Below, one piece after another: positions 4,238-24,061 of a stretch of DNA of 25,219 bases (position 1 is its first letter; each line of letters opens with the position of its first letter). The stretch is from a virus (taxonomy: Duplodnaviria; Caudoviricetes), in IMG/VR virus record IMGVR_UViG_3300044674_001373, positions 1 to 25,219 of that record, one strand, 5' to 3'. A program made the position numbers and the translations under genes. The notes under the pieces are model-generated. The model saw nothing but the letters and a program-made list of their open reading frames with translations, had not been told where the DNA came from and ran no database searches.

Positions 4238-4245
4238 TATTTATA
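4238..4245 (-). promoter_or_regulatory. T4-type late promoter TATAAATA for the tail-fibre module
   Basis: Exact T4 gp55 consensus in the intergenic gap, 32 nt upstream of the fibre ATG. No sigma70 -35 is apparent. Confidence 0.75.
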
Positions 4246-4413
4246 CTACTGACTATACAATTTGACTTTTTTTTGCTTCTCTATACAGATTATGATGTGT
4301 GTTCTGTGATGCTGGTCCTCTACTGCGATCTCCCAACCCTGTAAGGGATCGTAGTGCGTGTGTGTTATGGTGTAGTGATCTATGCCCAGGTGGTTCAACA
4401 GCACTCGCGGCAT
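4246..4413 (-). CDS. Hypothetical protein (55 aa; start reassigned)
   Basis: RBS TAAGGA before ATG at 4413 (MPRVLLNHLG...). The longer track ORF overlaps the upstream gene extensively. Confidence 0.55.
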   Translation of the reverse strand: MPRVLLNHLGIDHYTITHTHYDPLQGWEIAVEDQHHRTHIIICIEKQKKVKLYSQ

Positions 4414-4444
4414 AGTCCTTATGCTGGTAGTGATGTTGTGTGTG

Positions 4445-4813
4445 CTACACTTCAAAGAGGTTGTTGAATTCACTGCTCTTGTTGGGCTTGCTGGGTTTCT
4501 TGTTCTTGCCGGGCTTCCTGTGTATCTCGCCAATTGTTGGTCGGTGATCAGCGTCAAAGCAGTTGGCCTTGTTAGCAAAGGGCACAAGATCAAACACCTC
4601 CACGTGATGCCCTGGGTTGTTCTTGAACTTGTCTATGAGATCTACCCAATTGACGTAGTTCCTCATCTTGGGGCTGACCTGACAACTCCAAATCTCCCTC
4701 CTGCCATCTTCAAACGGCACAATGAATATGAGTTTGTGTTGTAGCCCGGCGTACTTGTGTTGGTTGGGGCCTTTGTATTTGTAGTCTTTGATTACGTCAA
4801 GTAGTGCTTCCAT
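4445..4813 (-). CDS. Hypothetical protein
   Basis: 122 aa, RBS GGAGAG, TAATG-coupled to upstream gene, basic C-terminal tail. Confidence 0.75.
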   Translation of the reverse strand: MEALLDVIKDYKYKGPNQHKYAGLQHKLIFIVPFEDGRREIWSCQVSPKMRNYVNWVDLIDKFKNNPGHHVEVFDLVPFANKANCFDADHRPTIGEIHRKPGKNKKPSKPNKSSEFNNLFEV

Positions 4814-5112
4814 TATCTCTCTCCTTCCGCTCTGGGTACAAGCTCGCAGTTGTGCCTGCTCCAGGGCTGTCTGTCATCTATTCTCCGCAGTGTGAGGTCC
4901 TTTGCCTTCTTTCCCCTCCTGTCAGTGTTGTTGTGCCAAAAGTGGTAGTAGTCCTCAAACGTCATACTCCAGGGCTCGTCCCTGAACTTGGCCTGTGCCT
5001 TGGCCATCAAGTACCACCTGTTGATTATTCTCTTCTCGTTGTCTGGGCCTTGTTTCCAACGTTCCGGGAAGGTTAGGCCCTTCTGTCCGCTAACATAACC
5101 CCTAAAGCTCAT
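4813..5112 (-). CDS. HNH-like (beta-beta-alpha) nuclease/DNA-binding protein, possibly degenerate
   Basis: AKAQAKFRDEPWSMTFEDY...LTLRRIDDRQPWSRHNCELV resembles the phage 'LxRID...Y...N' HNH-related family. The catalytic His appears substituted. Confidence 0.55.
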   Translation of the reverse strand: MSFRGYVSGQKGLTFPERWKQGPDNEKRIINRWYLMAKAQAKFRDEPWSMTFEDYYHFWHNNTDRRGKKAKDLTLRRIDDRQPWSRHNCELVPRAEGER

Positions 5113-5327
5113 TGCTTGTCCTCCCTCTCTTTTTGTCTCTGTTTTATTAGATCAATAATCTTCTCTGCCCTGTTGTCTTGATCTTTCTTGATCTGTTTCA
5201 AAGCCTGTTGTAGTTTGAAAGTGTTGATGGGCACTGCCTTGTCGCCCGCCTCTGCCGCGATCATTTTGAGTTCGTCGATCACGCCCTCCAATACGTCGAT
5301 CAAATCAATTATGTCCTGCTTCTTCAT
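5109..5327 (-). CDS. Hypothetical coiled-coil protein (start reassigned)
   Basis: ATGA overlap with the upstream stop at 5324-5327. MKKQDIIDLIDVLEG..., helical. Confidence 0.7.
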   Translation of the reverse strand: MKKQDIIDLIDVLEGVIDELKMIAAEAGDKAVPINTFKLQQALKQIKKDQDNRAEKIIDLIKQRQKEREDKQ

Positions 5328-5521
5328 TGCTTGCCCTGCCTGTTTGCCTGTTTGACACGTTTGACCCAACTGGTGCTGTTGGCCCTCACTATGTCCGCTT
5401 TGTCTGTTGCCTTGAGCTGTGTGCCGTCCTCGTATCTAACGTCTCCGTACGCCTCGAGCGCCATCTCGGCACTCTTAACGATCAACTCGTCTATGTTGTC
5501 CTCTATTTCTCTCAATGTCAT
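5324..5521 (-). CDS. Hypothetical protein
   Basis: 65 aa, ATGA overlaps at both ends. Confidence 0.7.
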   Translation of the reverse strand: MTLREIEDNIDELIVKSAEMALEAYGDVRYEDGTQLKATDKADIVRANSTSWVKRVKQANRQGKQ

Positions 5522-5823
5522 TTTATTACGCTATGTCCTCTGTTTGTAAGGCACTGCCTCACAGCGTGCCTGTATGTTGATTGACGCTTGGGTATTAGTC
5601 CCAAACTCGCCGTGCTGAAATACCAATTAACTGCCTGTTGATATGAGTCCCAAGCCTTGCTCACGTGTTTATTGACCAACTGCTCACAATGCTGTATGTC
5701 GTTAGTGATCTCACGTGCCTGGTCCTCTGGGAACGTGCCGCTCCTACCCGCAGTGTCTATAACTGGTTTGTAAGAGCACGCACTCATCAAAATCAACGTA
5801 GTTAATAATAATGCCTTGTTCAT
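5518..5823 (-). CDS. Lipoprotein with paired cysteines
   Basis: Signal peptide MNKALLLTTLILMSA-C (lipobox). D.QHC...CLTNRGH motif recalls small lipoproteins of marine alphaproteobacterial phages. Confidence 0.75.
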   Translation of the reverse strand: MNKALLLTTLILMSACSYKPVIDTAGRSGTFPEDQAREITNDIQHCEQLVNKHVSKAWDSYQQAVNWYFSTASLGLIPKRQSTYRHAVRQCLTNRGHSVIK

Positions 5824-6014
5824 TAATACACCGTCCTCTTAAACTTGACCAATTGTACCTCCACCGTACAATCTGCGTGTTTAGCCTTAACGGTCTTGCT
5901 GAAAAGACCCGCTTCTACCTTCTTGTTCTCGTTTGACACTTGCTTCATCTCAAACGATTCGTTTTTGTCTTTGTCTATGATTGTAGCCAAAGCATATAAG
6001 CCCTGTTTCGCCAT
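5823..6014 (-). CDS. Nested small protein MAKQGLYALATIID... (63 aa)
   Basis: Strong RBS AAGGAGG 8 nt before ATG at 6014, with its own promoter at 6040-6073. Confidence 0.7.
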   Translation of the reverse strand: MAKQGLYALATIIDKDKNESFEMKQVSNENKKVEAGLFSKTVKAKHADCTVEVQLVKFKRTVY

Positions 6015-6683
6015 AGTGTTGTCCTCCTTGTTGTTGTTGTATTTATTATACTTTATTTCGGGGTATTTCGCAATCAGTTTGTCAAACAATTTACGCCTGA
6101 TAGCGACTTTGTTGTCCTTCAACTGCTTGTTTAGATATCTGGCCCTCGTGCTGTCCAATGTGCCTGCCCTAGCAAGATCGCCTTTCTCGAAGCAGTATTT
6201 GATGCTGGCCTCGTCCCATTGCTTCTTGTAGTCCGCAAACACTTTGTCCTCCTGCTTCTTGTCCTTGAGCAGTTTATTGAACTCATTGTATTCTTTGCCG
6301 TCAAAGATCACGTAGTTTAACTCCGGGCAATAGTCTTTAAAGTTCAGAACCCTTTTAGGGTATTGAGGTTTGCCATCTTTCCATTTCATTATTTTAGGCG
6401 TTTTATCTGACATCGCCCAACTTAATTGTTGGAGATCTGTACTAAACGCCATAATGCTCTTGCTCTGGTCTAATCCCAAATAGTGCTGTGCCAACCATTT
6501 CTGGTGTTGCCAAGCATCACTGGTCTTGTAGTATCGCCATTGTGAGCCCAAGCCTAATTTGCCCGAGTACTGGTGCTTCCTTGTTATGCCTTTGCTTTTA
6601 GCCACGCATATTACTACCTCACGGCTACAATCATCTTTTTTAGCAAGGTCTATCTCTACTTGTTCTAACGGTTTTACAATCAT
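5823..6683 (-). CDS. Hypothetical protein, in frame with a separately initiated C-terminal 63-aa gene
   Basis: 286 aa, Lys-rich, ATGA overlap at start. The segment encoding KYNKYNNNKEDNT is a promoter plus RBS. Confidence 0.7.
   Translation of the reverse strand: MIVKPLEQVEIDLAKKDDCSREVVICVAKSKGITRKHQYSGKLGLGSQWRYYKTSDAWQHQKWLAQHYLGLDQSKSIMAFSTDLQQLSWAMSDKTPKIMKWKDGKPQYPKRVLNFKDYCPELNYVIFDGKEYNEFNKLLKDKKQEDKVFADYKKQWDEASIKYCFEKGDLARAGTLDSTRARYLNKQLKDNKVAIRRKLFDKLIAKYPEIKYNKYNNNKEDNTMAKQGLYALATIIDKDKNESFEMKQVSNENKKVEAGLFSKTVKAKHADCTVEVQLVKFKRTVY
6040..6073 (-). promoter_or_regulatory. Composite sigma70/TAAATA promoter inside a CDS
   Basis: TTGCGA (6073-6068), 17 bp, TATAAT (6050-6045), overlapping AATAAATA (6047-6040). 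Confidence 0.7.
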
Positions 6684-6868
6684 CTGTCCTCCTTTGTTTG
6701 CCTACAATCTTTAACCATCGGTATTGTCTCCTTTGCTTGTTTGTGTAGCAGTTCGTATGCCTCGTCAATAGTCTTTACAGAACCAACTACTTGGGGATTC
6801 TTACAATACACTTCATACTTGATTAGATTAACTTCATCGTCGTGTTGTTGTATTTCAAACATAAACAT
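6680..6868 (-). CDS. Hypothetical protein (62 aa; start reassigned)
   Basis: RBS AGGAGGAGG before ATG at 6868 (MFMFEIQQ...), immediately after the upstream stop. Confidence 0.7.
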   Translation of the reverse strand: MFMFEIQQHDDEVNLIKYEVYCKNPQVVGSVKTIDEAYELLHKQAKETIPMVKDCRQTKEDR

Positions 6869-6869
6869 A

Positions 6870-7499
6870 TTACGCCTCCTCCTTGTTGAATGCTTTGTTG
6901 TACCATCTCTTCGCCACGTCATCTTGATAATTGTAGTTGTAATGACCGTACGCCGTTTTATGGGTGTATCTCTTGCTCAATACAAAGCCCTCCAAAGCGT
7001 CCTGTAGTCTATGTACGAGCTCAAGCCTCTCGCTGTACGTCAGTCCTCGGGGTGTCGCAATTGATAAGTCCTGATTGTAGTTGCTCGCCAACCAAACCTC
7101 GCCCTCCCCCGGCAATCTGGGCTCTAATTTATACTTGGGCTTGATGTGTTTGTCCAAACGTAGTGCGGTACGTGATTCTATATATGCCCTAGCCTTGTCC
7201 CTGATCGACCTCTGTAGTTTGTCCTTTATCTTTTCATAGTCAAAGTCAAAGTCATTGATCTCGAACTGCCAAAGCAGGTTCCTCGCCGTGTGCTTGTCCG
7301 TCAGTTTGCCGTTTTGTTTGAGCCAACGCCTAAACACCTTCCTCATCTTCTGCTGTGAGCCCAACATCTCTAGGGTCAATTGCTCATCGATGTGTTTGTA
7401 CAACTTGTCCAAATTAACCGTGTATGCCTTCTCGCTCCTGTTGTTGGTTATGGTGTATTCAACGGGCTTGTATAACTTGGTTAGATCATATTTTTTCAT
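6870..7499 (-). CDS. Hypothetical basic protein (start reassigned)
   Basis: ATG at 7499 (MKKYDLTKL...) preceded by GGGGG. 209 aa, K/R-rich, possibly DNA-binding. Confidence 0.7.
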   Translation of the reverse strand: MKKYDLTKLYKPVEYTITNNRSEKAYTVNLDKLYKHIDEQLTLEMLGSQQKMRKVFRRWLKQNGKLTDKHTARNLLWQFEINDFDFDYEKIKDKLQRSIRDKARAYIESRTALRLDKHIKPKYKLEPRLPGEGEVWLASNYNQDLSIATPRGLTYSERLELVHRLQDALEGFVLSKRYTHKTAYGHYNYNYQDDVAKRWYNKAFNKEEA

Positions 7500-7737
7500 T
7501 GTTGCCCCCCGGGTCGCCCTGTTGCCACACAAAGTCAGTCGGACTATGTCCATTCTGCTTGACCTCCTGTGTGTTGTGCTCATTTTGTTTGAGTTTGTGA
7601 GCAAGTATGTGCTTCTCTTCCTCGATAGCCTCTTCAAGTTGCTCTATCTCCTTCTTCAAGGGCACTAACTTGTCCATAAAGAACTCCACACGTAGTATGA
7701 AGTCATTTATGACTGCTATGTCTTCTTTGTCTGCCAT
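7486..7737 (-). CDS. Hypothetical coiled-coil protein (start reassigned)
   Basis: RBS AAGGAGA before ATG at 7737 (MADKEDIAV...), directly downstream of the promoter. Confidence 0.75.
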   Translation of the reverse strand: MADKEDIAVINDFILRVEFFMDKLVPLKKEIEQLEEAIEEEKHILAHKLKQNEHNTQEVKQNGHSPTDFVWQQGDPGGNNEKI

Positions 7738-7765
7738 TTTATGTTCTCCTTTGTTTAACATTATG

Positions 7766-7799
7766 TATTTATTATAGCACAAAGCCATATATGTGTCAA
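7766..7799 (-). promoter_or_regulatory. Composite sigma70/TAAATA promoter
   Basis: TTGACA (7799-7794), 17 bp, extended TG-C-TATAAT (7776-7771), overlapping AATAAATA (7773-7766). Confidence 0.9.
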
Positions 7800-7817
7800 T
7801 TGATAAAAAGTCATCAT

Positions 7818-8198
7818 CTATGCGGTTTTGTTGTGCTTGTTCTTACAGAAGTCCCTGTTCTTATGGCTCTTATAACTATGACAGTTCTTACAGAGCGTCT
7901 GTATGTTGTCTATGACGTTATTACATCTATCGCCGTCTATGTGATCTAGTTCTAACACACCCGGGTATGGTATGTGAGCGGAGCATTCGTATCCCAACCT
8001 CGAGTCCCTGTTCTCGCAGTACGTCTTCTTCACAGCCACCACGTGCTCGTCCAATGGTTTAGCACCATATGACGCGAGATGACAGCGTCCGCACACTGGT
8101 CGCCACCGTTTAGTGCCGTTCTTGTGTGTATGGCTGTAGGCCACCTTGTTTGAGCAGTTGATGTTGATACACCTAGGGATTGAATCGTCGTGTAGCAT
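7818..8198 (-). CDS. HNH endonuclease with N-terminal Zn-binding motifs
   Basis: LELDHIDGDRCNNVIDNIQTLCKNCH is a canonical HNH motif. N-terminal CxxxxC and CxxC. Confidence 0.9.
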   Translation of the reverse strand: MLHDDSIPRCININCSNKVAYSHTHKNGTKRWRPVCGRCHLASYGAKPLDEHVVAVKKTYCENRDSRLGYECSAHIPYPGVLELDHIDGDRCNNVIDNIQTLCKNCHSYKSHKNRDFCKNKHNKTA

Positions 8199-8367
8199 AG
8201 GTCTGACAGGTCTGTTCTGGTGTGTTGAATCCCGTGTAGTTGGGGCAGGGCCAACCGTCTATGAGCTTGACCCTTGTGTGCCACAACGCAGTGCCGCACC
8301 CCTGTAAGGACAAGAGTGTTATGAGGCACAGCACCGCTGTTGTTCTGTTAAATCGTATTGACTTCAT
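8173..8367 (-). CDS. Small lipoprotein (64 aa; start reassigned)
   Basis: RBS AAGGA before ATG at 8367. MKSIRFNRTTAVLCLITLLSLQG-C lipobox; two further Cys in the mature part. Confidence 0.65.
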   Translation of the reverse strand: MKSIRFNRTTAVLCLITLLSLQGCGTALWHTRVKLIDGWPCPNYTGFNTPEQTCQTYATRRFNP

Positions 8368-8587
8368 ATTGTATGTCCTTGAGGCGTTGTGATATCTCCC
8401 ACACGCCCTGGCTTTGTTCCTGTCCCTGTAGATACACTCGGGCGTTGTCCAAGTCCGCCTTGCTCCTGTGCCTGAACCACTCCACGTACTGATCACGTGT
8501 GTTGAACCATATGGGGAAGCCCGCGGGCACTGGTGCCCCAAGTTCCACCAATAGCCTCTGTGCCTGATACTGCCGTGCCCCGCTCAT
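8348..8587 (-). CDS. Hypothetical protein
   Basis: 79 aa, ATGA overlap with the upstream gene. Confidence 0.65.
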   Translation of the reverse strand: MSGARQYQAQRLLVELGAPVPAGFPIWFNTRDQYVEWFRHRSKADLDNARVYLQGQEQSQGVWEISQRLKDIQYEVNTI

Positions 8588-8826
8588 CGCGTCGTGCCCG
8601 ACGCTTCAGCGTCGTCCCCCGCGTTAGACAGCAGTGCGGCCAATACGTCCGCTATGGCCCGAGTGTGTGCCCCAGGGTGTATATTGACGCCGGATACTTG
8701 GCGATCGAATATGATCAGGCTGGGGCCACGCTCGCTTGACTCCAACTGCGATCGAGCACGTGTGATCGTACAGCCGGGTTCAAAGTCTGTCTGGGTGTAA
8801 ATGTTGATGCCCTTGTATTGTTCCAT
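8584..8826 (-). CDS. Hypothetical protein (80 aa; start reassigned)
   Basis: RBS GGGGAG before ATG at 8826 (MEQYKGINIY...). Confidence 0.7.
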   Translation of the reverse strand: MEQYKGINIYTQTDFEPGCTITRARSQLESSERGPSLIIFDRQVSGVNIHPGAHTRAIADVLAALLSNAGDDAEASGTTR

Positions 8827-8933
8827 TATGATCTCCCCACACTGGGGCACACGATTGAAACTGGGAATTGACCCATAACTGATGTGCCCCGTGTTGGTCT
8901 GTTTATAGAGTTTAAAAAAATAAACATAGTGTC

Positions 8934-8962
8934 ATTGTAGCACGTTTGAGCAAATGTGTCAA
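8934..8962 (-). promoter_or_regulatory. sigma70 promoter (extended -10)
   Basis: TTGACA (8962-8957), 17 bp, TG-C-TACAAT (8939-8934). Confidence 0.85.
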
Positions 8963-9065
8963 GGCCCCAATTGTGATTAATTTTTACAACGCAACTGGGC
9001 CGTGTCTCCGATGTCATTTCAAGCGACGCCACTCTATGCCGCCCTCGTGTCAATTTCTTGATTGT

Positions 9066-9154
9066 GTATGGCGTGTGCCCGTGAGGGGTAGCCCTTGCTC
9101 ACCCTGGGAACTCGTGTGCCACACACGCCATACTTTATAAGAGCAAAGCACACG
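9066..9154. other. Intergenic stem-loop with alternative pairings
   Basis: 12-bp perfect inverted repeat GTATGGCGTGTG (9066-9077)/CACACGCCATAC (9122-9133) with an inner GTGAG...CTCAC stem. Extra GCACACG at 9148-9154. Confidence 0.6.
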
Positions 9155-9164
9155 GTCCCGTTCA

Positions 9165-9368
9165 TTAACTCTGTTTCACCTCGTTAGTCATTAGTGTCTT
9201 GAATCGCCTAGCACCCACTCGCTGTCGTGCCAACTCCTCTATGGTGCTGGGGTCATCGGTCTCCACCACAAAGTCATTCACCACTGGTTGCTTGTCCGTG
9301 TTGTATGTCCTGTAGTATGGGTGCGAGTCGTAGTGCTCCGTATATACTTTGTATATCTTGTACGCCAT
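9165..9368 (-). CDS. Hypothetical protein
   Basis: 67 aa, RBS AAGGAGG, TAATG coupling. Confidence 0.8.
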   Translation of the reverse strand: MAYKIYKVYTEHYDSHPYYRTYNTDKQPVVNDFVVETDDPSTIEELARQRVGARRFKTLMTNEVKQS

Positions 9369-9679
9369 TACTGGTCCTCCTTCAGTATGTCCAACAGCAC
9401 TTCCTTGCTGTTGCCATAGTCCAATACTGCTTGATACTGCTGTTGTGTCAGTGTAAAGTCTAGGTCGCCGTCCTCGAAGTCGGAGTCGTGATCTACCTCA
9501 TATGTGTTGTGATCAAACGTGCTGTGTATGTACTCCGCTTGGGGCCAACTTATCCTCGTGTGCTGGTCCCCGGGCTTGGAATCGTTCGCTCTCATTGTGA
9601 TGTACATACCCCTTGTTTTGTCTTGATCGAAGCAGGCCGTCATTGTGTCCGCAACGTGTTGTCTCAATTTGCCGTACAT
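9368..9679 (-). CDS. Hypothetical acidic protein
   Basis: 103 aa, RBS AGGAGG, TAATG coupling. Confidence 0.8.
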   Translation of the reverse strand: MYGKLRQHVADTMTACFDQDKTRGMYITMRANDSKPGDQHTRISWPQAEYIHSTFDHNTYEVDHDSDFEDGDLDFTLTQQQYQAVLDYGNSKEVLLDILKEDQ

Positions 9680-9870
9680 TACTTGACCTCCTGTATGGTT
9701 GTGTCAGCGTTGTACAGCTCCTGGTTGTGCTCCAGGGCCATATAGCAGTCCGCCTCGTCATACGCTTGATCCCAATCCTGGGCCTCCACGTAAAACTCTA
9801 TGTGCTCGCTGTCGTTGGTCTCATTGTCCCATAACAGCGTCATCACTTTGTATCTTTTGTTTGTGTTCAT
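9679..9870 (-). CDS. Hypothetical acidic protein (63 aa; start may instead be 9909)
   Basis: RBS AAGGA before ATG at 9870 (MNTNKRYKV...). First gene after the promoter at 9930-9963. Confidence 0.7.
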   Translation of the reverse strand: MNTNKRYKVMTLLWDNETNDSEHIEFYVEAQDWDQAYDEADCYMALEHNQELYNADTTIQEVK

Positions 9871-9929
9871 TTGTCTTGTCCTTTGTAGTATAGTGCCCGT
9901 ATGCTTCATTGCGTACTATTAACACTATG

Positions 9930-9963
9930 TATTTATAATAGCACACAACACACAAGATGTCAA
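9930..9963 (-). promoter_or_regulatory. Composite sigma70/TATAAATA promoter
   Basis: TTGACA (9963-9958), 17 bp, TG-C-TATTAT (9940-9935), overlapping a perfect TATAAATA (9937-9930). Confidence 0.85.
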
Positions 9964-10029
9964 GCGTCAAAACCCCCATAAAAGACACTTTTTTGACGAT
10001 TTTTTTACCATTTTTTCTGTTTCCTAGGC

Positions 10030-10057
10030 TTGACAGGGCGGAAAAGTGTGCTATAAT
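10030..10057 (+). promoter_or_regulatory. Divergent sigma70 promoter with no downstream sense ORF
   Basis: TTGACA (10030-10035), 16 bp, TG-C-TATAAT (10052-10057). Same GTGCTA signature as the other early promoters. Confidence 0.75.
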
Positions 10058-10228
10058 CGGGCTCAACAGGGCTTTTACGCTGTAAAACGTTGAAATCATT
10101 GAATCTTTTGTGTTTAAACAAAGTTAGACGGGGCCGGGCAAATACCCATACTATATCAACCCTTCTGTAGTAGCCATTTAACCTTCTGTGTGTGCTCTTT
10201 ACCAACCTAAACGTCTTGTAATCGCCTG

Positions 10229-10987
10229 CTAATCTTGGCTCAAATTCAAACGTTCAAGCATACTCTCGAGATTGTGTGTGCCCTGCTTTACTGCTCGCTT
10301 TAAGGGCTGTTCTTGGTAAGCGTACTGCTGTTGCCGGTCAAACACGTCTGCCACCGCGGGTGTTGTGTCATAGTCAGTGTGTTTCATCCCCACTATGCCG
10401 TTGTAAGTGTCTAGCACCGTGTTGTCCTTGCTGGTGTGTATCGTGAGGTTGTGTATGGTGTTCAGTGTGTTCAGTTTGCGTTTGATGTCCGTGATGTCAG
10501 CGCCACAGCCAAGATTGGTCTTTACGCCACCCAGTCCCTTGGCCCTACTGCGTGTGTCCCGGCGTTGCTTGGCCTCTGCCTCGGTGTAGTCCATATGTAG
10601 CACGTGTATGGGTGCTGACTCACTCAGTGTGTGGAACAGCTCCAGGCTTTGGTGATACAGCCCCTCGAATGCCAGGTGTGCGCCGTGTTGCGTGGCCCAT
10701 TTGGCCCATTGCTCTATGCTACGGCTTGACTTGACGTAGTCCCCGCCCTCCATATTGTGCGTGATGTACCAGTCCTGTCCGGGTGCCTTGGTGCCGCTGT
10801 ATGATCCCACCACCCAGCAGTCCTGTCGGGGCGTGTGTGCGGTCGTGTCGTCCCAGCATCTCGTGAGTAGCGCCTGTCCCGTGGTGGTGCTCTTGAGGAA
10901 CACCCTGCTGTGTGTGTAGCTCTGCTTTATGGTGCGTATGGCGTGGCTCTTGCCAGATCCGCTAGTGCCCAGTGCTGTTATGTACAT
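10229..10987 (-). CDS. P-loop nucleotide/DNA kinase-like protein (start reassigned)
   Basis: N-terminal Walker A GTSGSGKS, then VVGSY...EGGD...FEG motifs reminiscent of the P-loop kinases linked to thymidine hypermodification. ATG at 10987 follows GCGGGGA. Confidence 0.7.
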   Translation of the reverse strand: MYITALGTSGSGKSHAIRTIKQSYTHSRVFLKSTTTGQALLTRCWDDTTAHTPRQDCWVVGSYSGTKAPGQDWYITHNMEGGDYVKSSRSIEQWAKWATQHGAHLAFEGLYHQSLELFHTLSESAPIHVLHMDYTEAEAKQRRDTRSRAKGLGGVKTNLGCGADITDIKRKLNTLNTIHNLTIHTSKDNTVLDTYNGIVGMKHTDYDTTPAVADVFDRQQQYAYQEQPLKRAVKQGTHNLESMLERLNLSQD

Positions 10988-11000: not shown

Positions 11001-11040
11001 TATTTACCTGTAGTATAGCACACTACTCAAAATGTGTCAA
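11001..11040 (-). promoter_or_regulatory. Tandem sigma70/TAAATA promoter
   Basis: TTGACA (11040-11035), 17 bp, TG-C-TATACT (11017-11012), followed by GGTAAATA (11008-11001). Confidence 0.85.
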
Positions 11041-11282: not shown

Positions 11283-11668
11283 TAAAATTATTTAGCGTGG
11301 GCAAACTCACATAAGTAAAAATGTTAGGCACACTTTAGGCACGTTCAACAACACACATAGATGACAGCCAAGGCAACAAGGAGTTTTACACACCCTCTGA
11401 ATTGTGTAGAGTACTAGGGCTGTATGTACGCCCCTGTTAGGCAAGGACAGGTTAAACAAATGGGCAGTCAATGACGGGACTTTTTGGAAATTTTGGGTCC
11501 CGTGCTTTGCTACAATCAAGCGGACCAACAGGCGAGTAGCAATTTGGAAATAGCCATCCCCGAGGGGGGTGCGTGTGATACGGAACACCCAGCACGCGGC
11601 AATTGGTGAATCGTTGGTCATCTGTGAGATGTATTTTTAGCATTCTTGCTAAAAGTCATCTACCTTGA

Positions 11669-11736: not shown

Positions 11737-11744
11737 AGTAAATA
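11737..11744 (+). promoter_or_regulatory. TAAATA late-type promoter, probably giving a leaderless mRNA
   Basis: AGTAAATA followed by 5 nt and then ATG (11750). No Shine-Dalgarno. Confidence 0.6.
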
Positions 11745-13772: not shown

Positions 13773-13773
13773 A

Positions 13774-15744: not shown

Positions 15745-15745
15745 A

Positions 15746-17227: not shown

Positions 17228-17832
17228 TACGTGTCCTCTCTAACATTAATCTCGTATGTGAATAGTTCAGGGTTGCCAACGCTGAACTGCTGTTGATCGC
17301 TTGTTAAAAAAACTTTGAAAGGAACGTTGTTGTATTGTACCGTAGTGCTTGACGTGGTCGCCGTCCTCAATGTTGGGAATATGGGCAAAGCGTCTATGGT
17401 CGAACCATCTAAATTGACGTCCTCCGTTAGCATATACACCTTGTCGTGATTGCTGAATTTTATTAGATCACCACTCTTGAGCGTGCCAGTGCCTCCACTT
17501 ACGGGCACGTTGCTTGATGTAGCGGAGTTGTCATAATCGCTTGTAGTCGCTTCCGCACACGTTATGGTGCCTGAAGCCGTACCCCTCGTGCTAGAGATCA
17601 ACGGTGGTACAACGGTGAAACTATCAAACTTACCGCCCTGTTTCATTATGAATGCCATTATGGGCATATAGTCTTCCCTGCTCAACGGTGGGGATACTAA
17701 TTTGAAACTGAAGTGTTGGCTGTTGATCTGTGCCCTCTGTGTCCTGCCCGAAAGAGTCTGTGTTGTCCTAGTCTGTGTGTTGCTCTTGAACTCCATAGTT
17801 GTGAAGCCCGCTGTTGGGAATGTGCCTGCCAT
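17227..17832 (-). CDS. Distal tail (Dit-like) protein
   Basis: TLSGRTQR, IMAFIMKQGGKFDSF, LKSGDLIKFSNHDKVYM motifs. Immediately after the tape measure gene. Confidence 0.75.
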   Translation of the reverse strand: MAGTFPTAGFTTMEFKSNTQTRTTQTLSGRTQRAQINSQHFSFKLVSPPLSREDYMPIMAFIMKQGGKFDSFTVVPPLISSTRGTASGTITCAEATTSDYDNSATSSNVPVSGGTGTLKSGDLIKFSNHDKVYMLTEDVNLDGSTIDALPIFPTLRTATTSSTTVQYNNVPFKVFLTSDQQQFSVGNPELFTYEINVREDT

Positions 17833-19838
17833 TATACTAATGCCCTCCTGCCTTGTTCATTCAACGCTTGATTGATCATTCCAATGAATACGCTTTGTCT
17901 CGATCTAATCAGCTTGTCAAAATCACGTGTGTCTGTTGCTGTTATGTTGAAGTTTATGTTTATGGTTTGTTGTCCGCCCGCTAGTTTGTCATTAGGCACA
18001 ACGGTTCCAGTCCTTCCCGGCACAAAGAGCTCGGGTCCAGCTTCACCAATCATAAACGGTTGATTACCTATCGTTGTACCACCCTCTTCCCTGCCTGGGT
18101 ATTGTTGATTCCTAATTACTGCCACCTGTGCCAGTCCCGAAGCAACTATGGCTCCCGCTAACAACGGTCCGAATATACCACCCTGTGCCAACGCCTTCGT
18201 AGCACCTTGGTATGTGTTGATCACCGCCTCTGTTATGGCTACCGCCTTGTTAAGTTCGAAAGCACGTTTATTGACCTGTGCTATCTGTTCTAAAGCACTA
18301 CGAGCCCCCGCTACCGCTACTTCTCTTTTCTCTTCTTCAGTAGCGTTTGCTAGATCTAGGTCTTTGAAGTTTCCCTGTCGTACAGCACTGATCCTTGCTT
18401 CTTGGTTTCTTCTAATTTGTTCTAGTTCTCTGTCGTAAATGGCCTTACGTTTTGCCGCCGCGTCCTCTTCTATCTTCTGTATTCTCTGTGCCGCAACTTC
18501 ATAACTGAATGCTTTCTTTTCAAGTCCTTCTTCTATTAATGCTTTCTGCTCATTCTCCTTACGTATTATCTTGTCAAGTTCGTCTTCGTTTAACCTGTCT
18601 ATAGTCTCCAACGCACTCTTGTTTTTCTTTAAGAATTCTTCTATAGCATTCGCTTCTCTTTTGATCTGTTCGATCTTTTCCTTACGTTGTTTCTTCTCTT
18701 CCCTTAATCTCTGTGTGGCTCTCTCTACGCTGGCGTTGTAGTGTTCGTTGTGCTCCGTTAGTTCCCCAAGCTCCTCGCTCGTGCCCATAATGTCCTGTAT
18801 CAGCCCATCTATCTCGTCCCTGAACACGTATAGTCCCGCCAACGCCGTGCCCGCTAGCAACAGGAACAACGGATTCTTCAGCATAACCGCCGTCAAACCT
18901 CGCACTATGCCCGTCAATGCCACGAGTGTGTTAGCGAACTTGACGAAACCGTTAGCAACACCTATTATGGCCAAGCCCGCGAACGCCACCTTTAAAATCT
19001 CTATGTTGTCTTTTAGGAATATTACTGCCTTGCCCGCATTTATAGTAGCACCCGCAAGTGCCTTACCAACGCCTTCAGCGAAATCATCTAGGCCATCTTG
19101 GTTCTCATCAAAGAACTTGTTGAGATCGCCCAGCTCGGTTTTCAGTGCTTCAAAAAATGATTCATTGACCGTGGTTTGAAATTTAAAGAATTTATCTCCC
19201 AACATCGAGAGCGTACCCTCTAACGTGTTAGCAAACTCCTGTGCCGCGTTGCCGAACTCACCGCCAGCGCCGAACACTTCCTCGAATCTACGTCTCGTCT
19301 CCTCCGCCGTTGTCCTCACGCCTTGTTTGAATCCCAGTAATGCTAACACACCCCTTTCTCTGAATATGTCCGCACTCGCCGCACCTGTACTGAACGCCCT
19401 CTGTATCTGCTCACCAGCAGTCCTAAAGTCAATGCCCGATACAGCCGCAACGTTTGCCGTTATGCCCAAAACGTCATTTAGTTCCTCGGCGTCATCTGCT
19501 ACGATAGCCAAGTTTCCCGATGCTAACGCAATGTCTTGAAGGCTAAAGGGAACGCCCGCCGCAAAGTCCGTAAGTGTCTTGAATGCCCTCGCACCCTCTT
19601 CAGCACTTCCGAACAAGAACTTAAATCGTAGTTGTAGTGATTCTACTTCCTTACCAACGCTGACGAGACCCTTAACAAACCTGGCCGCACCTAGGCCCGC
19701 TAAAGCAACTCCAGCCAGCGTGGCTGCCCTGCCAAAGGACATCAATGCTTTTTCGTTGTTCTTTAAGGCACCGCCCAGTGCTTCCACATCGCGTTTGCCC
19801 TGTACCTTGGCTCGTATGTTATAGTCCTGTGTCGTCAT
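17832..19838 (-). CDS. Tail tape measure protein
   Basis: 668 aa, helical and A/G-rich. FGSAEEGARAF...FAAGVPFSL core, hydrophobic segments, C-terminal GEAGPELFVP motif. Confidence 0.92.
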   Translation of the reverse strand: MTTQDYNIRAKVQGKRDVEALGGALKNNEKALMSFGRAATLAGVALAGLGAARFVKGLVSVGKEVESLQLRFKFLFGSAEEGARAFKTLTDFAAGVPFSLQDIALASGNLAIVADDAEELNDVLGITANVAAVSGIDFRTAGEQIQRAFSTGAASADIFRERGVLALLGFKQGVRTTAEETRRRFEEVFGAGGEFGNAAQEFANTLEGTLSMLGDKFFKFQTTVNESFFEALKTELGDLNKFFDENQDGLDDFAEGVGKALAGATINAGKAVIFLKDNIEILKVAFAGLAIIGVANGFVKFANTLVALTGIVRGLTAVMLKNPLFLLLAGTALAGLYVFRDEIDGLIQDIMGTSEELGELTEHNEHYNASVERATQRLREEKKQRKEKIEQIKREANAIEEFLKKNKSALETIDRLNEDELDKIIRKENEQKALIEEGLEKKAFSYEVAAQRIQKIEEDAAAKRKAIYDRELEQIRRNQEARISAVRQGNFKDLDLANATEEEKREVAVAGARSALEQIAQVNKRAFELNKAVAITEAVINTYQGATKALAQGGIFGPLLAGAIVASGLAQVAVIRNQQYPGREEGGTTIGNQPFMIGEAGPELFVPGRTGTVVPNDKLAGGQQTININFNITATDTRDFDKLIRSRQSVFIGMINQALNEQGRRALV

Positions 19839-20023
19839 CGTCTATTCTTCGTCCTCGCTCTCGCTTGACGCATTTGCTTGTTGGCCGCATCTGCCTCAAT
19901 TTTAAGATATGCTATCCACATATCTATCTCCAACGCCGTCAGTTCCATTACCTCGGACACACTCTTCTTCAGCCTGTCCGCCAACATAAACAGGAACCTT
20001 GTTTCAGCGTTGGCGTTTATTCC
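19835..20023 (-). CDS. Tail assembly chaperone, -1 frameshift extension (gpT-like; missing from ORF track)
   Basis: The -1 frame relative to 20017..20364 reads GINANAETRFLFMLADRLKKSVSEVMELTALEIDMWIAYLKIE...KNRR* and ends in an ATGA overlap with the tape measure start. Confidence 0.8.
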   Translation of the reverse strand, partial: GINANAETRFLFMLADRLKKSVSEVMELTALEIDMWIAYLKIEADAANKQMRQARARTKNRR

Positions 20024-20364
20024 TTTACAAGTTCGTCAATCTTGGGTTTTAAAGCCGCGTTGTTGATCGTACCTGCCACTTTAGTGATAACGTTGGGATC
20101 CGCCTCATTCATTAAAACTATCCTGTCAGCCTCGTCAAATATTTTGTTGCCATTGCTGTCTAAAGCCTTTTGAATCAAAGACTCCACAAGTGCCTCAACT
20201 ATCTGTCCCTTGCTCTGTAGTTCTAACACTTTCGACTCCACTCTAAACGGGTATGTTGTCTTGTAAAAGACGTCCATATCCCACTCATCCACGTGTAGTT
20301 TCATAGCGTCTCCGCCTATCTCTTTGTGATAGTGTTTTGTTATTTTTTCTAAAGTTTTACTCAT
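20017..20364 (-). CDS. Tail assembly chaperone (gpG-like)
   Basis: 115 aa, LIQKALDSNGNKIF motif, canonical position between tail tube and tape measure. Confidence 0.8.
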   Translation of the reverse strand: MSKTLEKITKHYHKEIGGDAMKLHVDEWDMDVFYKTTYPFRVESKVLELQSKGQIVEALVESLIQKALDSNGNKIFDEADRIVLMNEADPNVITKVAGTINNAALKPKIDELVKE

Positions 20365-20672
20365 CGTATTATTTTTCCCTTCTGTCTGTTAGACACTTCC
20401 CTCGACGCTGGTCGGTAAAAACCCCGAGGTGCTTGTTTCGAATAGCCTTCATCAAGTCGCTGTATATAAGGTACGGTGTTCCGTAAATTATAATTCGTGT
20501 TGGATCTCTTCGCAAGTCTCCAATTGCTCCTTGCCCGACCTGATCGCTTCGGTGTGTATTTCTTGACCGTAGTTAAAAGATCTTTGGCTATTGAGCGAAC
20601 CATCTGATTTAGATTCCGTTCAAAATCAGCAGTTGCTTTGACCGAGTTAGGTGATATACTAACCTTAAACAA
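20361..20672 (-). CDS. HK97 gp10-like neck/tail completion protein
   Basis: TPKRSGRARSNW...NTVPYIQRLDEG motif. TTG start after CAGGAG. Confidence 0.8.
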   Translation of the reverse strand: MFKVSISPNSVKATADFERNLNQMVRSIAKDLLTTVKKYTPKRSGRARSNWRLAKRSNTNYNLRNTVPYIQRLDEGYSKQAPRGFYRPASREVSNRQKGKIIR

Positions 20673-20686
20673 GTGTATATCTCCTG

Positions 20687-21118
20687 TTATGTAGCCGCTA
20701 TTGTTAAGCCTGTTCCAGAACCGTTGTTAGTTCCTTGAAACGAGCAAGTAGCTTCTACCATTCCATCGAATGTACTGGTGATCGAGAAACCTGTGATTAT
20801 AACCTCACCTGTTAATGTCATACCAGCAGTCTCACCTGATGGGTATAGTTTTAATGTAGCTGGTGCTGAACCTTGAGTCCTCAATGCTTGTTGTGCCGCA
20901 TCGCTGTCCCTCATAAAAAGATCCATTGTACCACTGAAGTCAGTTAAACCCGCTTTGTATGATCTCACACCGCCCGAAGACATATTAGTGTCTTCAATAG
21001 TTTCGGTGTTAAGGTCAATACTAAAAGATCTAACAGACGCCACATTTGTTAAAGAATCAGAAACGTCAAACTCGACCCTTCCTGCTTCTCCTGTGTATGT
21101 AGTTGTATTGTAAGCCAT
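20687..21118 (-). CDS. Major tail tube protein
   Basis: 143 aa, SFSIDLNTETIEDT...GLTDFSGT...ITGFSITSTFDGMVEATCSFQGT. RBS GGAGG. Confidence 0.88.
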   Translation of the reverse strand: MAYNTTTYTGEAGRVEFDVSDSLTNVASVRSFSIDLNTETIEDTNMSSGGVRSYKAGLTDFSGTMDLFMRDSDAAQQALRTQGSAPATLKLYPSGETAGMTLTGEVIITGFSITSTFDGMVEATCSFQGTNNGSGTGLTIAAT

Positions 21119-21366
21119 TAGTTAGCCTCCTCATTATTGTTGATTAGGTCCTCGGGTCCTTCGAGTCCCACATCTATTCTTGGTTTAAGCACCACGGGCT
21201 CATCCACTTGGACATCACGCACAATCCTTTTACGTGATCTCTTCATTGATGGCTTCTGTGGTGTCGATGGTTCATTGTATGACCAACCATCTTTCAGTCT
21301 TGCCTGTACCTCTTTCGATGGTACAAGTTCTGAATTCCCTTGTTTGTCCCATAATTGTATTCTCAT
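21118..21366 (-). CDS. Hypothetical protein in neck/tail module
   Basis: 82 aa, TAATG-coupled at both ends. Confidence 0.7.
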   Translation of the reverse strand: MRIQLWDKQGNSELVPSKEVQARLKDGWSYNEPSTPQKPSMKRSRKRIVRDVQVDEPVVLKPRIDVGLEGPEDLINNNEEAN

Positions 21367-21803
21367 TATAGTACTCCTTTCAAGTATTGATATCTAACCT
21401 CAACCGTTATTACTACCTCACCGAGGGGCAGTTCTCTCTCCACCACCTCTATGTTTGATATCCTCGTGCTGACCGCGTGTATGTTTCCCGCGTCCCTTGT
21501 TAGATCTCTGTCCCTCGACACTTCCAGGATCTCCTCAACCCTCTCGACTATGTCGTTCCTCAAAGTGTCTATCTGTGTGCCTCGGACATAACATTTCAAT
21601 TGTATGCTCATTATGCCCTCACGTAAATCTGTTGATATGTCGCTCCTGCTCTCGCTCAATGTGTTGATCAGTATGGCCGGGAATTGTGTGATCGCTATCT
21701 TGCTGACCTCGAAGAACTCCCTGCTGACCAATCCCGGTGCTGGCTCCGTCATATTGAGCAGTTGGTCGTGTATGTTTTTTGTGATGTTTTCCCTTGCTGA
21801 CAT
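21366..21803 (-). CDS. Tail terminator/completion protein
   Basis: MSARENI...QFPAILI...ESR pattern and position upstream of the tail tube. Confidence 0.7.
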   Translation of the reverse strand: MSARENITKNIHDQLLNMTEPAPGLVSREFFEVSKIAITQFPAILINTLSESRSDISTDLREGIMSIQLKCYVRGTQIDTLRNDIVERVEEILEVSRDRDLTRDAGNIHAVSTRISNIEVVERELPLGEVVITVEVRYQYLKGVL

Positions 21804-22252
21804 TACCTAATTAGCCTACCTTGATAAAAGGACTGTTTCTCCGCGTCAGAGAACGTACCACTGCTGTCAAGATCGTAAGCAACGCCAACTTGTAGTATGG
21901 CGTCAAACTCCTCACTAAACTTCTGCTTGTAGTACATCATCTTCTCCCTGAACACATCTCCTTCTACCTCAAACGTTGATAAACGGGGATATATGTATTC
22001 GTGTAAAACGTGATACACAGCGGCCCTGGTGAATTGAGTAGTGTCCAATCTGCTTGGGCTTAATTTCGTATTGACGCCCACCACGCTGATATCTCTCGTA
22101 GCGTAGTTGGCCGTCGGCCACCAACGTATGTTTAGTAGTCTAATAAGGTCATCATAAGTCTTCTCGTGTAATGAAGTAAAGTCTTGTATGCCGTAGTTTT
22201 TGATGTCTGGCTCGTATTCCAGTATGTCTGAATCTGTAGCAAATGTAGCCAT
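21803..22252 (-). CDS. Head-tail adaptor/head completion protein
   Basis: 149 aa, MATFATDSDI N-terminus, first gene after the capsid gene, ends in ...GRLIR. Confidence 0.7.
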   Translation of the reverse strand: MATFATDSDILEYEPDIKNYGIQDFTSLHEKTYDDLIRLLNIRWWPTANYATRDISVVGVNTKLSPSRLDTTQFTRAAVYHVLHEYIYPRLSTFEVEGDVFREKMMYYKQKFSEEFDAILQVGVAYDLDSSGTFSDAEKQSFYQGRLIR

Positions 22253-22308: not shown

Positions 22309-22316
22309 TATTTATT
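22309..22316 (-). promoter_or_regulatory. TAAATA late-type promoter for neck/tail genes
   Basis: AATAAATA between the post-capsid hairpin and the AAGGA hairpins. Confidence 0.65.
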
Positions 22317-22322
22317 TGTCTC

Positions 22323-22351
22323 GGGCGTTGTAAGGGGAACAAACAACGCCC
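22323..22351 (-). terminator. Post-capsid stem-loop (terminator or mRNA-stabilising)
   Basis: 9-bp stem GGGCGTTGT/ACAACGCCC, 27 nt after the capsid stop. No U-tract, so intrinsic termination is uncertain. Confidence 0.45.
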
Positions 22352-22378
22352 ATAAGACCAGAGAGGTTAATTGTTAAA

Positions 22379-23263
22379 TTATACCTCTTTGTTTCCTTTA
22401 ACAAGAACCGCGTATGAAGCTTTAACAACGTTATTGCCTCTCGCCGTAGTACCAACGTACTCCGTTAATCTTCTCGAAACGTCTCTTTGGGTCTCGATTC
22501 TGATTGGTCTCTTGATGACGTGTGCGAATGCTTGGGGGCTAAAAACCGCACCAAGACCACTTGTAGATGTTGAATCATCCGCTATCGCAGTTGATTGAAA
22601 CATCTTCACGTTAAAGATCTTGCCAACGAACGCTGATGATGATAATAAGTTATTACCAACGTTAGACAAAGCACCAGCCGCTCCAGATGAAGCATAACCG
22701 GCGTTCGCTAACACTTTAGCGATGTTGAACGCTTGTTTTGGATGTAAAACACAGAAGTAGTCGCCATCAGCATCTGTTGGTGCTGAATTGCCTCTTAATG
22801 TATATACCGCTTGTAAAATGTGATCTGGTGTTAATTCTATATTATCACCACCCACTAAAGGGTTAGCATTAAGTTTTGCTTCTGTGAATTGAGCAAAAGC
22901 GTCGGTGTCGATCTTTTCGGCTAAAGCTCCGCCGATCATAACGCCCACGTCTGAGCCCATATTTCTCGCTGTTGATTCTGCTAATAAGTCAGAAACATCA
23001 ACTCTTGCCGCGATCTCTGATGCTGTAATATCTACTTGAGCAACTGATACCGCTGATTCTGAAACATCATCAGTCTGTGCTGGAGCACTGGCTGAGATTT
23101 CAGGATACACGGGGATTTGAGCAGTTAAGCCTGGAGTCCCTGTCATATCGTATGTGTTGAACACACCACCCGCAATAGATTTCTCAGAAGCTGTGAAGAC
23201 CGCCTCTTGTAAAATATTGGTATAAAGTTGTGTGTCGTTTGATTGTAGTTCTGGTTGTGCCAT
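22379..23263 (-). CDS. Major capsid protein (HK97 fold)
   Basis: 294 aa following the scaffold. TAQIPVY, GALAEKIDTD, YFCVLHP.Q, VGKIFNVKMF, IRIETQRD motifs. RBS CAGGAG. Confidence 0.9.
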   Translation of the reverse strand: MAQPELQSNDTQLYTNILQEAVFTASEKSIAGGVFNTYDMTGTPGLTAQIPVYPEISASAPAQTDDVSESAVSVAQVDITASEIAARVDVSDLLAESTARNMGSDVGVMIGGALAEKIDTDAFAQFTEAKLNANPLVGGDNIELTPDHILQAVYTLRGNSAPTDADGDYFCVLHPKQAFNIAKVLANAGYASSGAAGALSNVGNNLLSSSAFVGKIFNVKMFQSTAIADDSTSTSGLGAVFSPQAFAHVIKRPIRIETQRDVSRRLTEYVGTTARGNNVVKASYAVLVKGNKEV

Positions 23264-23285
23264 TACTATCTCCTGTTAGTGCGCC

Positions 23286-24008
23286 TTATATCCTCGGTTT
23301 ATAGACGTCGTGTCTTAACTTCTTATACAAAGCACGTTGTTCTGGATCGTTAAGATCCAACTTGTTTATATCAACCTTTGTAGCACCTTCAGTAGATGTA
23401 TTCGATTTCGATCCGCTGCCTGCTGGTCCCGCCGCAACAAAATGAGCGTTGTCTCGTAAAAATGTGCTCACGAGTTGCTCAGTTGTCAAAGCATCACCCT
23501 TGTCAGTATAACGTGTCTGTCGCGATACTGGATCAACCACTTCGACCGTTCCGTCCTCATTCATCTTGACTTGATCCCTAACAAGTTTAACAACCTGTCC
23601 TGGGTTTATCGCTTTGTACTTGCTTGCCGCATCTAACAAAGCTCCATCAATCTTAATGTTTGACAGTTCTTGTGTCAAAGTATTGATTTTAGAGTTGGCC
23701 TTCTCAGCCTGCTCCCTCAATATCGTCTCGAACTCACCTTTCTTCTTCTGCTCTTCAAGTTTAGATTGCTCTTCCTTGTCAAGCAAAGTCCTGTAAGTCT
23801 CAACATCCACACCATCAAACTTCTTTAACACTTTAGCCTCTGTGGTGTGTTTCACCTTGGCCATTATGTTATCTACGTCTTCCTGTGTGTAAGTCTTCGC
23901 GTGTTGATCTACCGCGTTCTCCTGAGTTGGGTTGTTTTTTGTTTGTTCCGGTTGTGCCCCAGTAGCAGTCTCCGTATTCAAATCCGATGTTTGTGTGTCT
24001 TGACTCAT
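23286..24008 (-). CDS. Capsid scaffolding protein (start reassigned)
   Basis: Disordered N-terminus, KTYTQEDVDNI motif, coiled coil with KKGEFE, C-terminal GSGS. RBS CAGGAGG before ATG at 24008. Confidence 0.88.
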   Translation of the reverse strand: MSQDTQTSDLNTETATGAQPEQTKNNPTQENAVDQHAKTYTQEDVDNIMAKVKHTTEAKVLKKFDGVDVETYRTLLDKEEQSKLEEQKKKGEFETILREQAEKANSKINTLTQELSNIKIDGALLDAASKYKAINPGQVVKLVRDQVKMNEDGTVEVVDPVSRQTRYTDKGDALTTEQLVSTFLRDNAHFVAAGPAGSGSKSNTSTEGATKVDINKLDLNDPEQRALYKKLRHDVYKPRI

Positions 24009-24053
24009 CGTGTCCTCCTGTTGTTTGTCTCGGGCCGTATTTGCCCTACGCAT

Positions 24054-24061
24054 TATTTATA
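24054..24061 (-). promoter_or_regulatory. T4-type late promoter TATAAATA for scaffold-capsid genes
   Basis: Exact consensus immediately after the upstream stop and 45 nt before the scaffold ATG. Confidence 0.75.

Follow-up and report, generated by a model that had tools for sequence, protein, structure and literature searches.

Small Aquatic Siphoviruses with T4-Type Late Promoters as Candidate Full-Virion Satellites of T4-like Phages

Introduction

The IMG/VR virus record IMGVR_UViG_3300044674_001373 (Duplodnaviria; Caudoviricetes) comprises 25,219 nucleotides (nt), in the following called the window, which encode virion modules of a small siphovirus and carry the hexamer TAAATA ahead of them. 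This raises the question which transcription machinery switches on the late genes of such an element. The original prediction was that it builds its own virion but fires its late genes only when a T4-like helper phage supplies the late sigma factor. In passages of PMC2988020 and PMC2984593, the late promoters of the T4 family are described as a short -10-only motif, i.e., TATAAATA or the cyanophage form NATAAATA, which has no -35 and precedes virion genes. The motif is read by gp55, which is activated by DNA-mounted gp45 together with gp33 (PMC2988020, in part).

Given the results below, the element is probably a full-virion satellite that uses the late sigma factor, the replisome and the lysis of a T4-like helper. 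We infer this helper dependence from absent genes together with the promoter wiring, i.e., the placement of TAAATA ahead of virion operons. A broader version, for which we are inclined to argue with somewhat less assurance, sees a wide aquatic family of tailed phages as obligate parasites of T4-like myophages, with gp55 as switch and sensor and a putative PacI-fold protein as the key to hijacking. The case is stronger than the one made originally, since recognizable genes for initiation, integration and lysis are missing from the wired genomes as well and since sister phages keep such genes without the wiring.

Placement and Conservation of the TAAATA Hexamer

All ten hexamers of the original prediction are found where it had placed them (Table 1), three of them extended to TATAAATA as claimed. 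The raw count was rejected as evidence: the window total of 10 is at chance level (11.5 in shuffled sequences, at least 10 in 76 of 100 shuffles). The placing, on the other hand, is non-random. Eight of the ten sites lie in sense-strand intergenic DNA, which makes up 2,452 nt (9.7%) of the window, and the window genes hold two sense and no antisense copies compared to 6.8 and 5.0 expected from codon shuffling (with +11739 counted as coding). That is, a proper count supports the assumed enrichment for position and not for number. The scaffold, neck and fibre sites show no conserved -35, again as stated before. Slightly overstated was the claim that every site lies upstream of a gene or RNA: seven minus-strand sites are located about 14-60 nt before a gene and the plus-strand site 5 nt before one, but site 6040 lies within the open reading frame (ORF) 5823-6683 and site 11289 precedes no convincing gene. 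A candidate RNA at 11289 was dropped (0 Rfam matches in the window); one short RNA-library contig at 11342-11523 is uninformative on strand and start.

We also scored the relatives of the window, i.e., capsid-bearing loci and whole genomes without dereplication, keeping HTVC111P out as control. A site was counted when TAAATA ended 20-70 nt before a gene start. The hexamer is found ahead of the scaffold gene in 76/76 loci, of the gp80-like gene in 23/23 and of the head-tail connector in 80/86, for which 1.7, 0.5 and 1.7 are expected, respectively. Overall, 179 of 185 target loci carry it, with an A at position -1 in 65%. Operon-internal control genes give 3/86 (capsid), 0/75 (tube), 0/42 (portal), 1/29 (TerL), 3/41 (Dit) and 1/27 (gp77). 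The placement is kept among relatives down to about 38% capsid identity. Within 91 dereplicated contexts, only the hexamer, the A at -1 and a weak downstream T-R-T are conserved, while the -35 region is flat. Thus, both features of a T4-type late promoter, i.e., a core ahead of virion genes and no conserved -35, appear to be present here.

Selection on the hexamer also manifests within genes. A copy inside the gene preceding gp77, 104-118 nt before gp77, is kept in all 15 genomes with that gene; for comparison, 17 of 290 [VIL]N[TS] tripeptides are spelled TAAATA. TerL holds a second intragenic copy, located about 60 codons before the stop and about 180 nt upstream of portal; 9 of 16 wired TerL genes have kept it at this place, as has the TerL of the unwired genome G017. 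Elsewhere, the genes of the 16 wired genomes are depleted of the hexamer (sense 58 vs. 156.8 expected, antisense 43 vs. 168.6), in contrast to those of G017 (28/27 vs. 20.8/23.3) and HTVC111P (24/26 vs. 28.9/19.2). The same control is mixed for T4-like segments (Mosig 11/23 vs. 21/32; S-8S53 11/2 vs. 9.4/6.6). Per genome, the fraction of copies lying upstream is 27-80% for TAAATA and 7-22% for 13 permuted hexamers. A motif that is a by-product of AT-rich intergenic DNA would fit the chance-level total of the window, but the fixed position at the target loci, the synonymous conservation within a gene, the depletion elsewhere and the lower permuted hexamers leave this explanation hardly any credit. 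We infer that TAAATA is under selection across a deep family, in a pattern to be expected if a promoter is recognized by a short word.

Not noted in the original prediction was that at four window sites (6040, 7766, 9930, 11001) the hexamer overlaps a good sigma70 promoter or comes right after one (TTGACA/TTGCGA-17-TATAAT-like, 10-12 of 12 positions); these sites are for this reason read as dual early/late promoters. Such overlaps account for 8 of 77 sigma70-like sites across 16 genomes; passages of PMC2984593 likewise report overlapping early and late promoters for RB49, S-PM2 and Syn9. An early promoter family TTGACA-N12-(T)GTGC-TATAAT is seen at 7766-7799, 8934-8962, 9930-9963 and 11012-11040 (minus strand) as well as 10030-10057 (plus strand), and its GTGCTA-type -10 recurs in G001, G003 and G004.

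These early promoters bear on the question whether the host's own sigma factor or transcription system reads TAAATA, such that late genes need no helper. In favour of such a host, the bacterial bin G136, which has no Terminase_6N match, shows a gp55-like match within a 346-amino-acid (aa) frame (G136:C18:22698-23057, E 4e-24). Furthermore, TATAAATA resembles an archaeal TATA box. Yet the early promoters are canonical sigma70 promoters, sisters infecting SAR11 are unwired, and this reading would not account for the lack of recognizable replication and lysis genes. Sites 12890 and 11001 are only about 14-21 nt away from the ATG, with AGGAG within the gap at 12890, a distance too short for an archaeal TATA box; both the archaeal and a sigma28 reading were dropped on spacing and logo. 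We consider a host-read hexamer very improbable.

Functions Not Recognized in Wired Genomes

We read 15 wired relatives in whole. Eight of them are closed at 29-32 kb, with terminal repeats in G001-G003, G011, G012, G016 and G019 and a circular genome in DSL-LC06; the other seven are linear and 93-100% complete. The absence of a sigma factor noted for the window extends to these complete or near-complete relatives, i.e., gp55, sigma and RNA polymerase were not found in them either. The gp55 profile phrog_234 matched 0/5 and 0/11 virus records. Three gp55s, two gp45s, gp44, gp43, primase, helicase and UvsX/Y/W as queries gave no hit in any wired genome (E≤0.01, six frames), while TerL and capsid as control queries recovered all of them. 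Beside the negatives for gp55, gp45 and gp44 in wired genomes, no separate search was made for gp33.

In addition, 302 proteins (49 + 130 + 123) were scanned on PHROGs and Pfam, leaving out core proteins, proteins below 45-55 aa, near-duplicates of scanned ones, three border-split proteins and the annotated sugar enzymes of DSL-LC06. In wired genomes, the matches were to HNH nucleases, to fibres and to transferases of the methyl-, acetyl- and glycosyl- type, but none was to a polymerase, primase, helicase, initiator, integrase, holin or endolysin. Thus, no key replication gene was recognized in the 15 wired genomes, many of whose ORFs are without family, while their own encapsidation set (TerS, TerL, portal, scaffold, capsid) is present in the complete relatives and in the relative L257.

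The nearest cultured phages are HTVC111P-type pelagiphages, which have the virion and terminase module in common with the wired family. The label lambdoid is not apt; DSL-LC06 and these pelagiphages are the phages with this virion module. According to bioRxiv 2019.12.14.876532, they were purified by dilution to extinction and have replication and lysis genes. The three we checked have a DnaD initiator, a helix-turn-helix (HTH) protein, an exonuclease and an endolysin in common and lack TAAATA before scaffold and connector. Used as queries, their DnaD, HTH, exonuclease and endolysin were found in 0/16 wired genomes (E≤0.01, six frames). G017, found by the same terminase search, also has an initiator, a holin and a lysozyme and no TAAATA before scaffold or connector, with one copy before the small gene following capsid. 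All four unwired genomes form one branch (FastTree 1.0; other analysis 90/93) and thus provide one contrast, not four. A TerL tree rooted with four outgroups is a polytomy.

A Signature Gene with a Putative PacI-like Fold

The homologue of the 99-aa gene 4813-5112 is the only non-virion gene common to all six genomes compared. It occurs in 15 of the 16 wired genomes, G015 (93% complete) being the exception, and in 0/4 unwired ones, and its family is large (2,977 clusters at E≤0.001). Residues R79, D81, W86, N90 and R96 are conserved (R-x-D...W...N), with no conserved His there. The best solved match of the structural model (pLDDT 81) is the nuclease PacI with a Z-score of 6.3, i.e., below 8, at a root-mean-square deviation of 3.6 over 81 aligned residues; the next match has Z 4.0, and unrelated rows score lower than PacI. 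Foldseek of the model against the PDB gave nothing at E≤0.001 (the PacI-like row has E 1.4), and the PDB sequence search with query A2 gave no meaningful match. By sequence, the protein weakly matches homing-endonuclease-like ORFs of T4-like coliphages. Its fold is weakly like that of viral proteins labelled 'Srd/anti-sigma factor' in BFVD (E 0.003-0.02), a label that we did not take as its function. The model thus suggests a PacI-fold protein and not a sigma factor. Among the genes seen, it would be the best candidate for the hijacking step, be it by a nick, by origin binding or as an anti-helper nickase; NixI of the phage-inducible chromosomal island-like elements (PLEs) is such an anti-helper nickase.

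The same gene is central to the idea of an autonomous phage with an unrecognized toolkit, in which TAAATA would be activated by a factor of the phage's own, for which the PacI-fold protein is the most plausible choice. This factor would also start replication with host enzymes, and novel lysis genes would release the particles. Its occurrence along with the wiring, the large family, the weak likeness to Srd-labelled proteins and the many unassigned early genes are in line with this. But the best solved match is a nuclease and not a sigma, and the protein is awkward as an activator since some of its copies (G002, G018, G020) are themselves preceded by TAAATA. The lack of any other common non-virion gene adds to this, and three separate functions would all have to escape detection, even though in the sisters they are found with ease. 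We hold an autonomous phage to be unlikely, with enough probability left to be kept in mind.

Helper Evidence and Proposed Mechanism

A capsid-pattern scan of 185,579 prokaryotic genomes gave one relative, the stand-alone 28-kb contig L098 in bin G010. The bin also holds a 118.7-kb T4-like contig with gp55, gp45, gp44, gp43, gp23 and gp18, which is 54-80% identical to the pelagiphage Mosig, and a gp55-like match is found in 1 of 150 other genomes of the bin's family. We regard the co-occurrence as one weak hint. Contigs C59 and C28 match over 35 nt of DNA, which was put down to chance. Several accessory genes are common to the wired family and the T4-like contig C28 of this bin, some of which the unwired sisters have too.

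The helper could also be a large phage of a different kind that has a gp55-like sigma or a polymerase of its own, or the dependence could be partial. The flanking logo is unlike that of Mosig and C28, and dual sigma70/TAAATA promoters permit some helper-free expression. On the other hand, the core motif is that of the T4 family, and accessory genes point to T4-like genomes, i.e., gene 24065-24529, several genes in C28 and a beta-glucosyl-HMC-alpha-glucosyltransferase/TAGT gene in G002 (L102:1958-2905). Such a hydroxymethylcytosine glucosyltransferase is expected if the satellite DNA is made from the modified-base pool of the helper. Another type of helper, or partial dependence, thus seems improbable to us.

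For a T4-like helper, we propose the following course. The particle would inject its own DNA unaided, and host sigma70 would read the early genes. With no integrase found, the satellite would have to co-infect the cell with its helper, wait for it as a non-replicating circle, or travel on the helper particle. The replisome of the helper would copy the satellite DNA, which the PacI-fold protein may set off by nicking the DNA or binding an origin, and this replication would load gp45. Helper gp55 and gp33 together with clamp-loaded gp45 would then fire the TAAATA promoters of the virion operons, the satellite terminase would package satellite genomes into their own virions, and helper lysis would free them. 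In such a scheme, the lack of a replisome goes well together with a promoter that is coupled to gp45.

Several observations weigh against helper dependence. The support consists of absence plus motif statistics. Most early genes are without family, such that a gene for activation, initiation or lysis may have gone unrecognized, and gene calls were made by a simple script that dropped short ORFs. G012 and G013 show short sigma-region-4-like HTH segments (no region 2), and G011 has an AAA-like protein. The PacI-fold protein tracks the wiring and could be a private regulator or initiator instead. With regard to the motif, position +6 is mostly A/C in the family and G/T in the T4-like Mosig and C28, a -35-like match of 5/6 is seen at 9 of 91 sites compared to 3.9 in shuffles (6/6 at none), and the connector site is missing in the six most divergent loci, L091-L093 and L095-L097. 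A single origin of the wired group is recovered in 26% of bootstrap trees. Finally, bin G010 is phage-contaminated, as a third terminase contig is present, and its two contigs differ in GC content (38.7 vs. 31.9%) and have no common protein (E<1e-5, masked search).

Among the divergent loci, L092 and L094 have TAAATA before scaffold while L091-L097 are without the connector site, which possibly represents intermediate wiring.

Layout of the Window

The window is a complete contig of its full length and a linear fragment; terminase and portal genes are not part of it. The relative L257, which we examined over 20.4 kb listing ORFs of at least 70 aa, is 97.8% identical to the window across 13.4 kb at one end, and the identity at the other end is 80%. 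It fills the gap with 5.65 kb of virion and packaging genes, namely those for terminase (TerS, TerL), portal and gp77 as well as a gp80-like gene, a structural gene of 435 aa and one for a small basic protein; the genome size is therefore about 31 kb. The five runs holding at least half of the window's sampled words are estuary metagenomes, and the DNA may come from three of these. Features are given in Table 1.

Table 1. Promoter sites, genes and modules of the window, ordered by subject; positions refer to the 25,219-nt stretch.
Feature	Position	Strand	Basis or remark
TAAATA = TATAAATA	24054..24061	-	45 nt upstream of scaffold start 24008
TAAATA, neck/tail operon	22309..22314	-	56 nt upstream of head-tail connector start 22252
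TAAATA, fibre-family gene	12890..12895	-	same site in G004, G013, G018
TAAATA	11739..11744	+	5 nt before ATG 11750; G001-G004 homologues also preceded by TAAATA
TAAATA	11289..11294	-	in non-coding 11-11.7 kb stretch; no convincing gene or known RNA after it
sigma70 promoter TTGACA-17-TATACT, then TAAATA	11001..11040	-	before P-loop gene 10229-10987
Dual promoter, TTGACA-17-TATTAT overlapping TATAAATA	9930..9963	-	sequence
Dual promoter, perfect TTGACA-17-TATAAT overlapping TAAATA	7766..7799	-	sequence
Dual promoter within ORF 5823-6683 (286 aa)	6040..6073	-	25 nt before in-frame AGGAG-ATG
TAAATA = TATAAATA	4238..4245	-	about 33 nt before fibre module (4205); fibre genes of complete relatives also preceded by TAAATA
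Small late genes, portal-scaffold interval	24065..25133	-	weak homologues for 24065-24529
Scaffold	23286-24008	-	PHROG profile match (scaffold and capsid regions: PHROG 2303 and 267)
Major capsid protein	22379-23263	-	PHROG profile match (scaffold and capsid regions: PHROG 2303 and 267)
Non-contractile tail module, complete	12900..22252	-	profile scans of window proteins
143-aa fibre-family gene	12438-12869	-	TAAATA about 21 nt upstream, AGGAG between
172-aa gene	11750-12268	+	G001 homologue weakly matches sialyltransferase family
P-loop protein gene, 252 aa	10229-10987	-	GTSGSGKS motif read in sequence; no family match
Early/accessory region, variable, sigma70 and dual promoters	4445..10987	-	small ORFs; HNH gene 7818-8198
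99-aa putative PacI-like (beta-beta-alpha) protein, near-universal non-virion gene	4813..5112	-	homologue search, predicted structure
Fibre/receptor-binding module, truncated by contig end	2..4205	-	function inferred from position and repeats

The tail module comprises connector, terminator, tube, neck, chaperones, tape measure, Dit and hub, and further holds two GNATs, a J-like central fibre and a 290-aa gene. Within the early region, profile and other scans of the window proteins found no replication or sigma gene, and the ESM Atlas gave no usable match for ORFs 5823-6683 and 6870-7499. The in-frame AGGAG-ATG after site 6040 likely gives a 63-aa second product. The P-loop protein is possibly a nucleotide or base-modification kinase. 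Since tblastn of its gene and of the fibre gene 2694-4205 against deposited phages matched nothing, no receptor or host link is drawn from the two. Among deposited phages, gene 24065-24529 has weak homologues in 16 records (E from 1e-5), all of them T4-like cyanophages.

The gene starting at 11750 is likely leaderless, judging from its upstream spacing; the layout of TAAATA, 5 nt and ATG seen at 11739-11752 (plus strand) is frequent on contig C28 of bin G010. Next to it, about 480 nt of non-coding DNA (11241-11720) between convergent units show two hairpins at 11679-11722 and AT tracts, which makes this stretch a candidate origin or terminator zone.

The portal-scaffold interval contains a cluster of small basic proteins (window 24513-25133; L257:6737-8188), a G005 member of which matches Pfam Hc1; they are likely DNA-condensing core proteins. 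Fibre modules (window 2-4205; G001-G020) hold a number of long fibre and lectin genes that vary and that often have a TAAATA of their own, and some of these proteins could bind the helper particle instead of the cell. The non-virion regions of DSL-LC06 (L032:1732-9017), G005, G014 and G015 consist nearly entirely of glycosyl-, methyl- and sialyltransferase-like genes, which suggests glycosylation of the virion or the cell surface.

Contigs from RNA runs (X8-X10) fall mainly on the genes for scaffold, capsid and tube (6, 7 and 11 of 30 bins) and cover almost nothing of window 1-6500. As they were recruited by the scaffold-capsid-tube stretch, they neither rank genes nor show starts.

Comparison with Known Systems

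The family consensus aTAAATA without -35 fits both the cyanophage NATAAATA and the T4 TATAAATA as given in passages of PMC2984593 and PMC2988020. Unlike in the T4 family, the promoters sit on a small siphovirus genome in which gp55, gp45 and gp44 were not found, and positions -2/-1 are relaxed. HTVC111P-type pelagiphages have homologous terminase, portal, capsid and tail genes and an equal genome size; they differ by their DnaD initiator, HTH, exonuclease and endolysin and by the lack of TAAATA before scaffold and connector (3 of 4 genomes checked). DSL-LC06 (OR003941, cluster VC_342_0), for which 'Nanhuiviridae' was proposed, is syntenic and has a common core with the family studied here: a circular 29.8-kb genome, the same wiring and the putative PacI-fold gene, with a capsid 36-40% identical to that of the window. 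It was described as a new uncultured family, and the main text of PMC10611076 does not contain the words 'promoter', 'satellite' or 'sigma'.

Capsid-encoding satellites without replication genes are already known from Streptomyces (PMC10690885, PMC13587820, PMC12822802). MiniFlayer and MulchRoom (PMC10690885) and Ando (PMC13587820) likewise encode capsid and terminase without key replication genes and parasitise large virulent phages, MiniFlayer being non-integrating. They are described there as smaller (Ando 13 kb), with a short fibre tail or the tail of the helper, while the family here has 29-32 kb and a complete long-tail module with its own tape measure. The words 'promoter' and 'sigma' have 0 occurrences in the main texts of PMC10690885 and PMC13587820. 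Among titles and abstracts of the openly accessible literature searched, we found no description of a gp55-dependent satellite; the supplements of PMC10611076 and of the bioRxiv paper may bear on this. The family would thus be a bacteriophage satellite virus with an undescribed control mechanism that is, by analogy, virophage-like in its working.

This analogy concerns function only. Virophages such as Sputnik and mavirus build their own virion, and their late genes carry the late promoter signal of the giant-virus helper, which reads it. They are eukaryotic, cytoplasmic and polinton-like, with no homology to the family here. Among bacterial satellites, the late promoters of P4 are activated by Ogr of its helper P2.

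Helper dependence is also the common trait of phage-inducible chromosomal islands (PICIs), PICIs that form capsids (cf-PICIs) and PLEs, which, like P4, are integrating elements that have a replicase of their own but take over capsid or tail (PMC10690885, PMC12822802). The difference from these elements that had been proposed for the window stands: full head and tail modules are present, neither integrase nor replicase was matched, and closed records span 29-32 kb. The bacterial satellites known so far mostly take structural parts from others and replicate with genes of their own; the family here appears to do the reverse, i.e., to build its own structure and to borrow replication. It is also common, with at least 477 confirmed connector-gene matches in IMG/VR and 412 in metagenomes, counted as stretches and not species, with the wiring checked in part. 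If helper dependence is true, part of the marine and freshwater small-siphovirus fraction would parasitise the T4-like phages to which cyanobacteria and SAR11 fall prey, which would explain the resistance of the family to isolation on pure hosts and give a recipe for culturing it. A screen for hidden satellites could then work from sequence alone, i.e., by looking for genomes in which the promoter motif of a helper is present and its sigma factor is absent.

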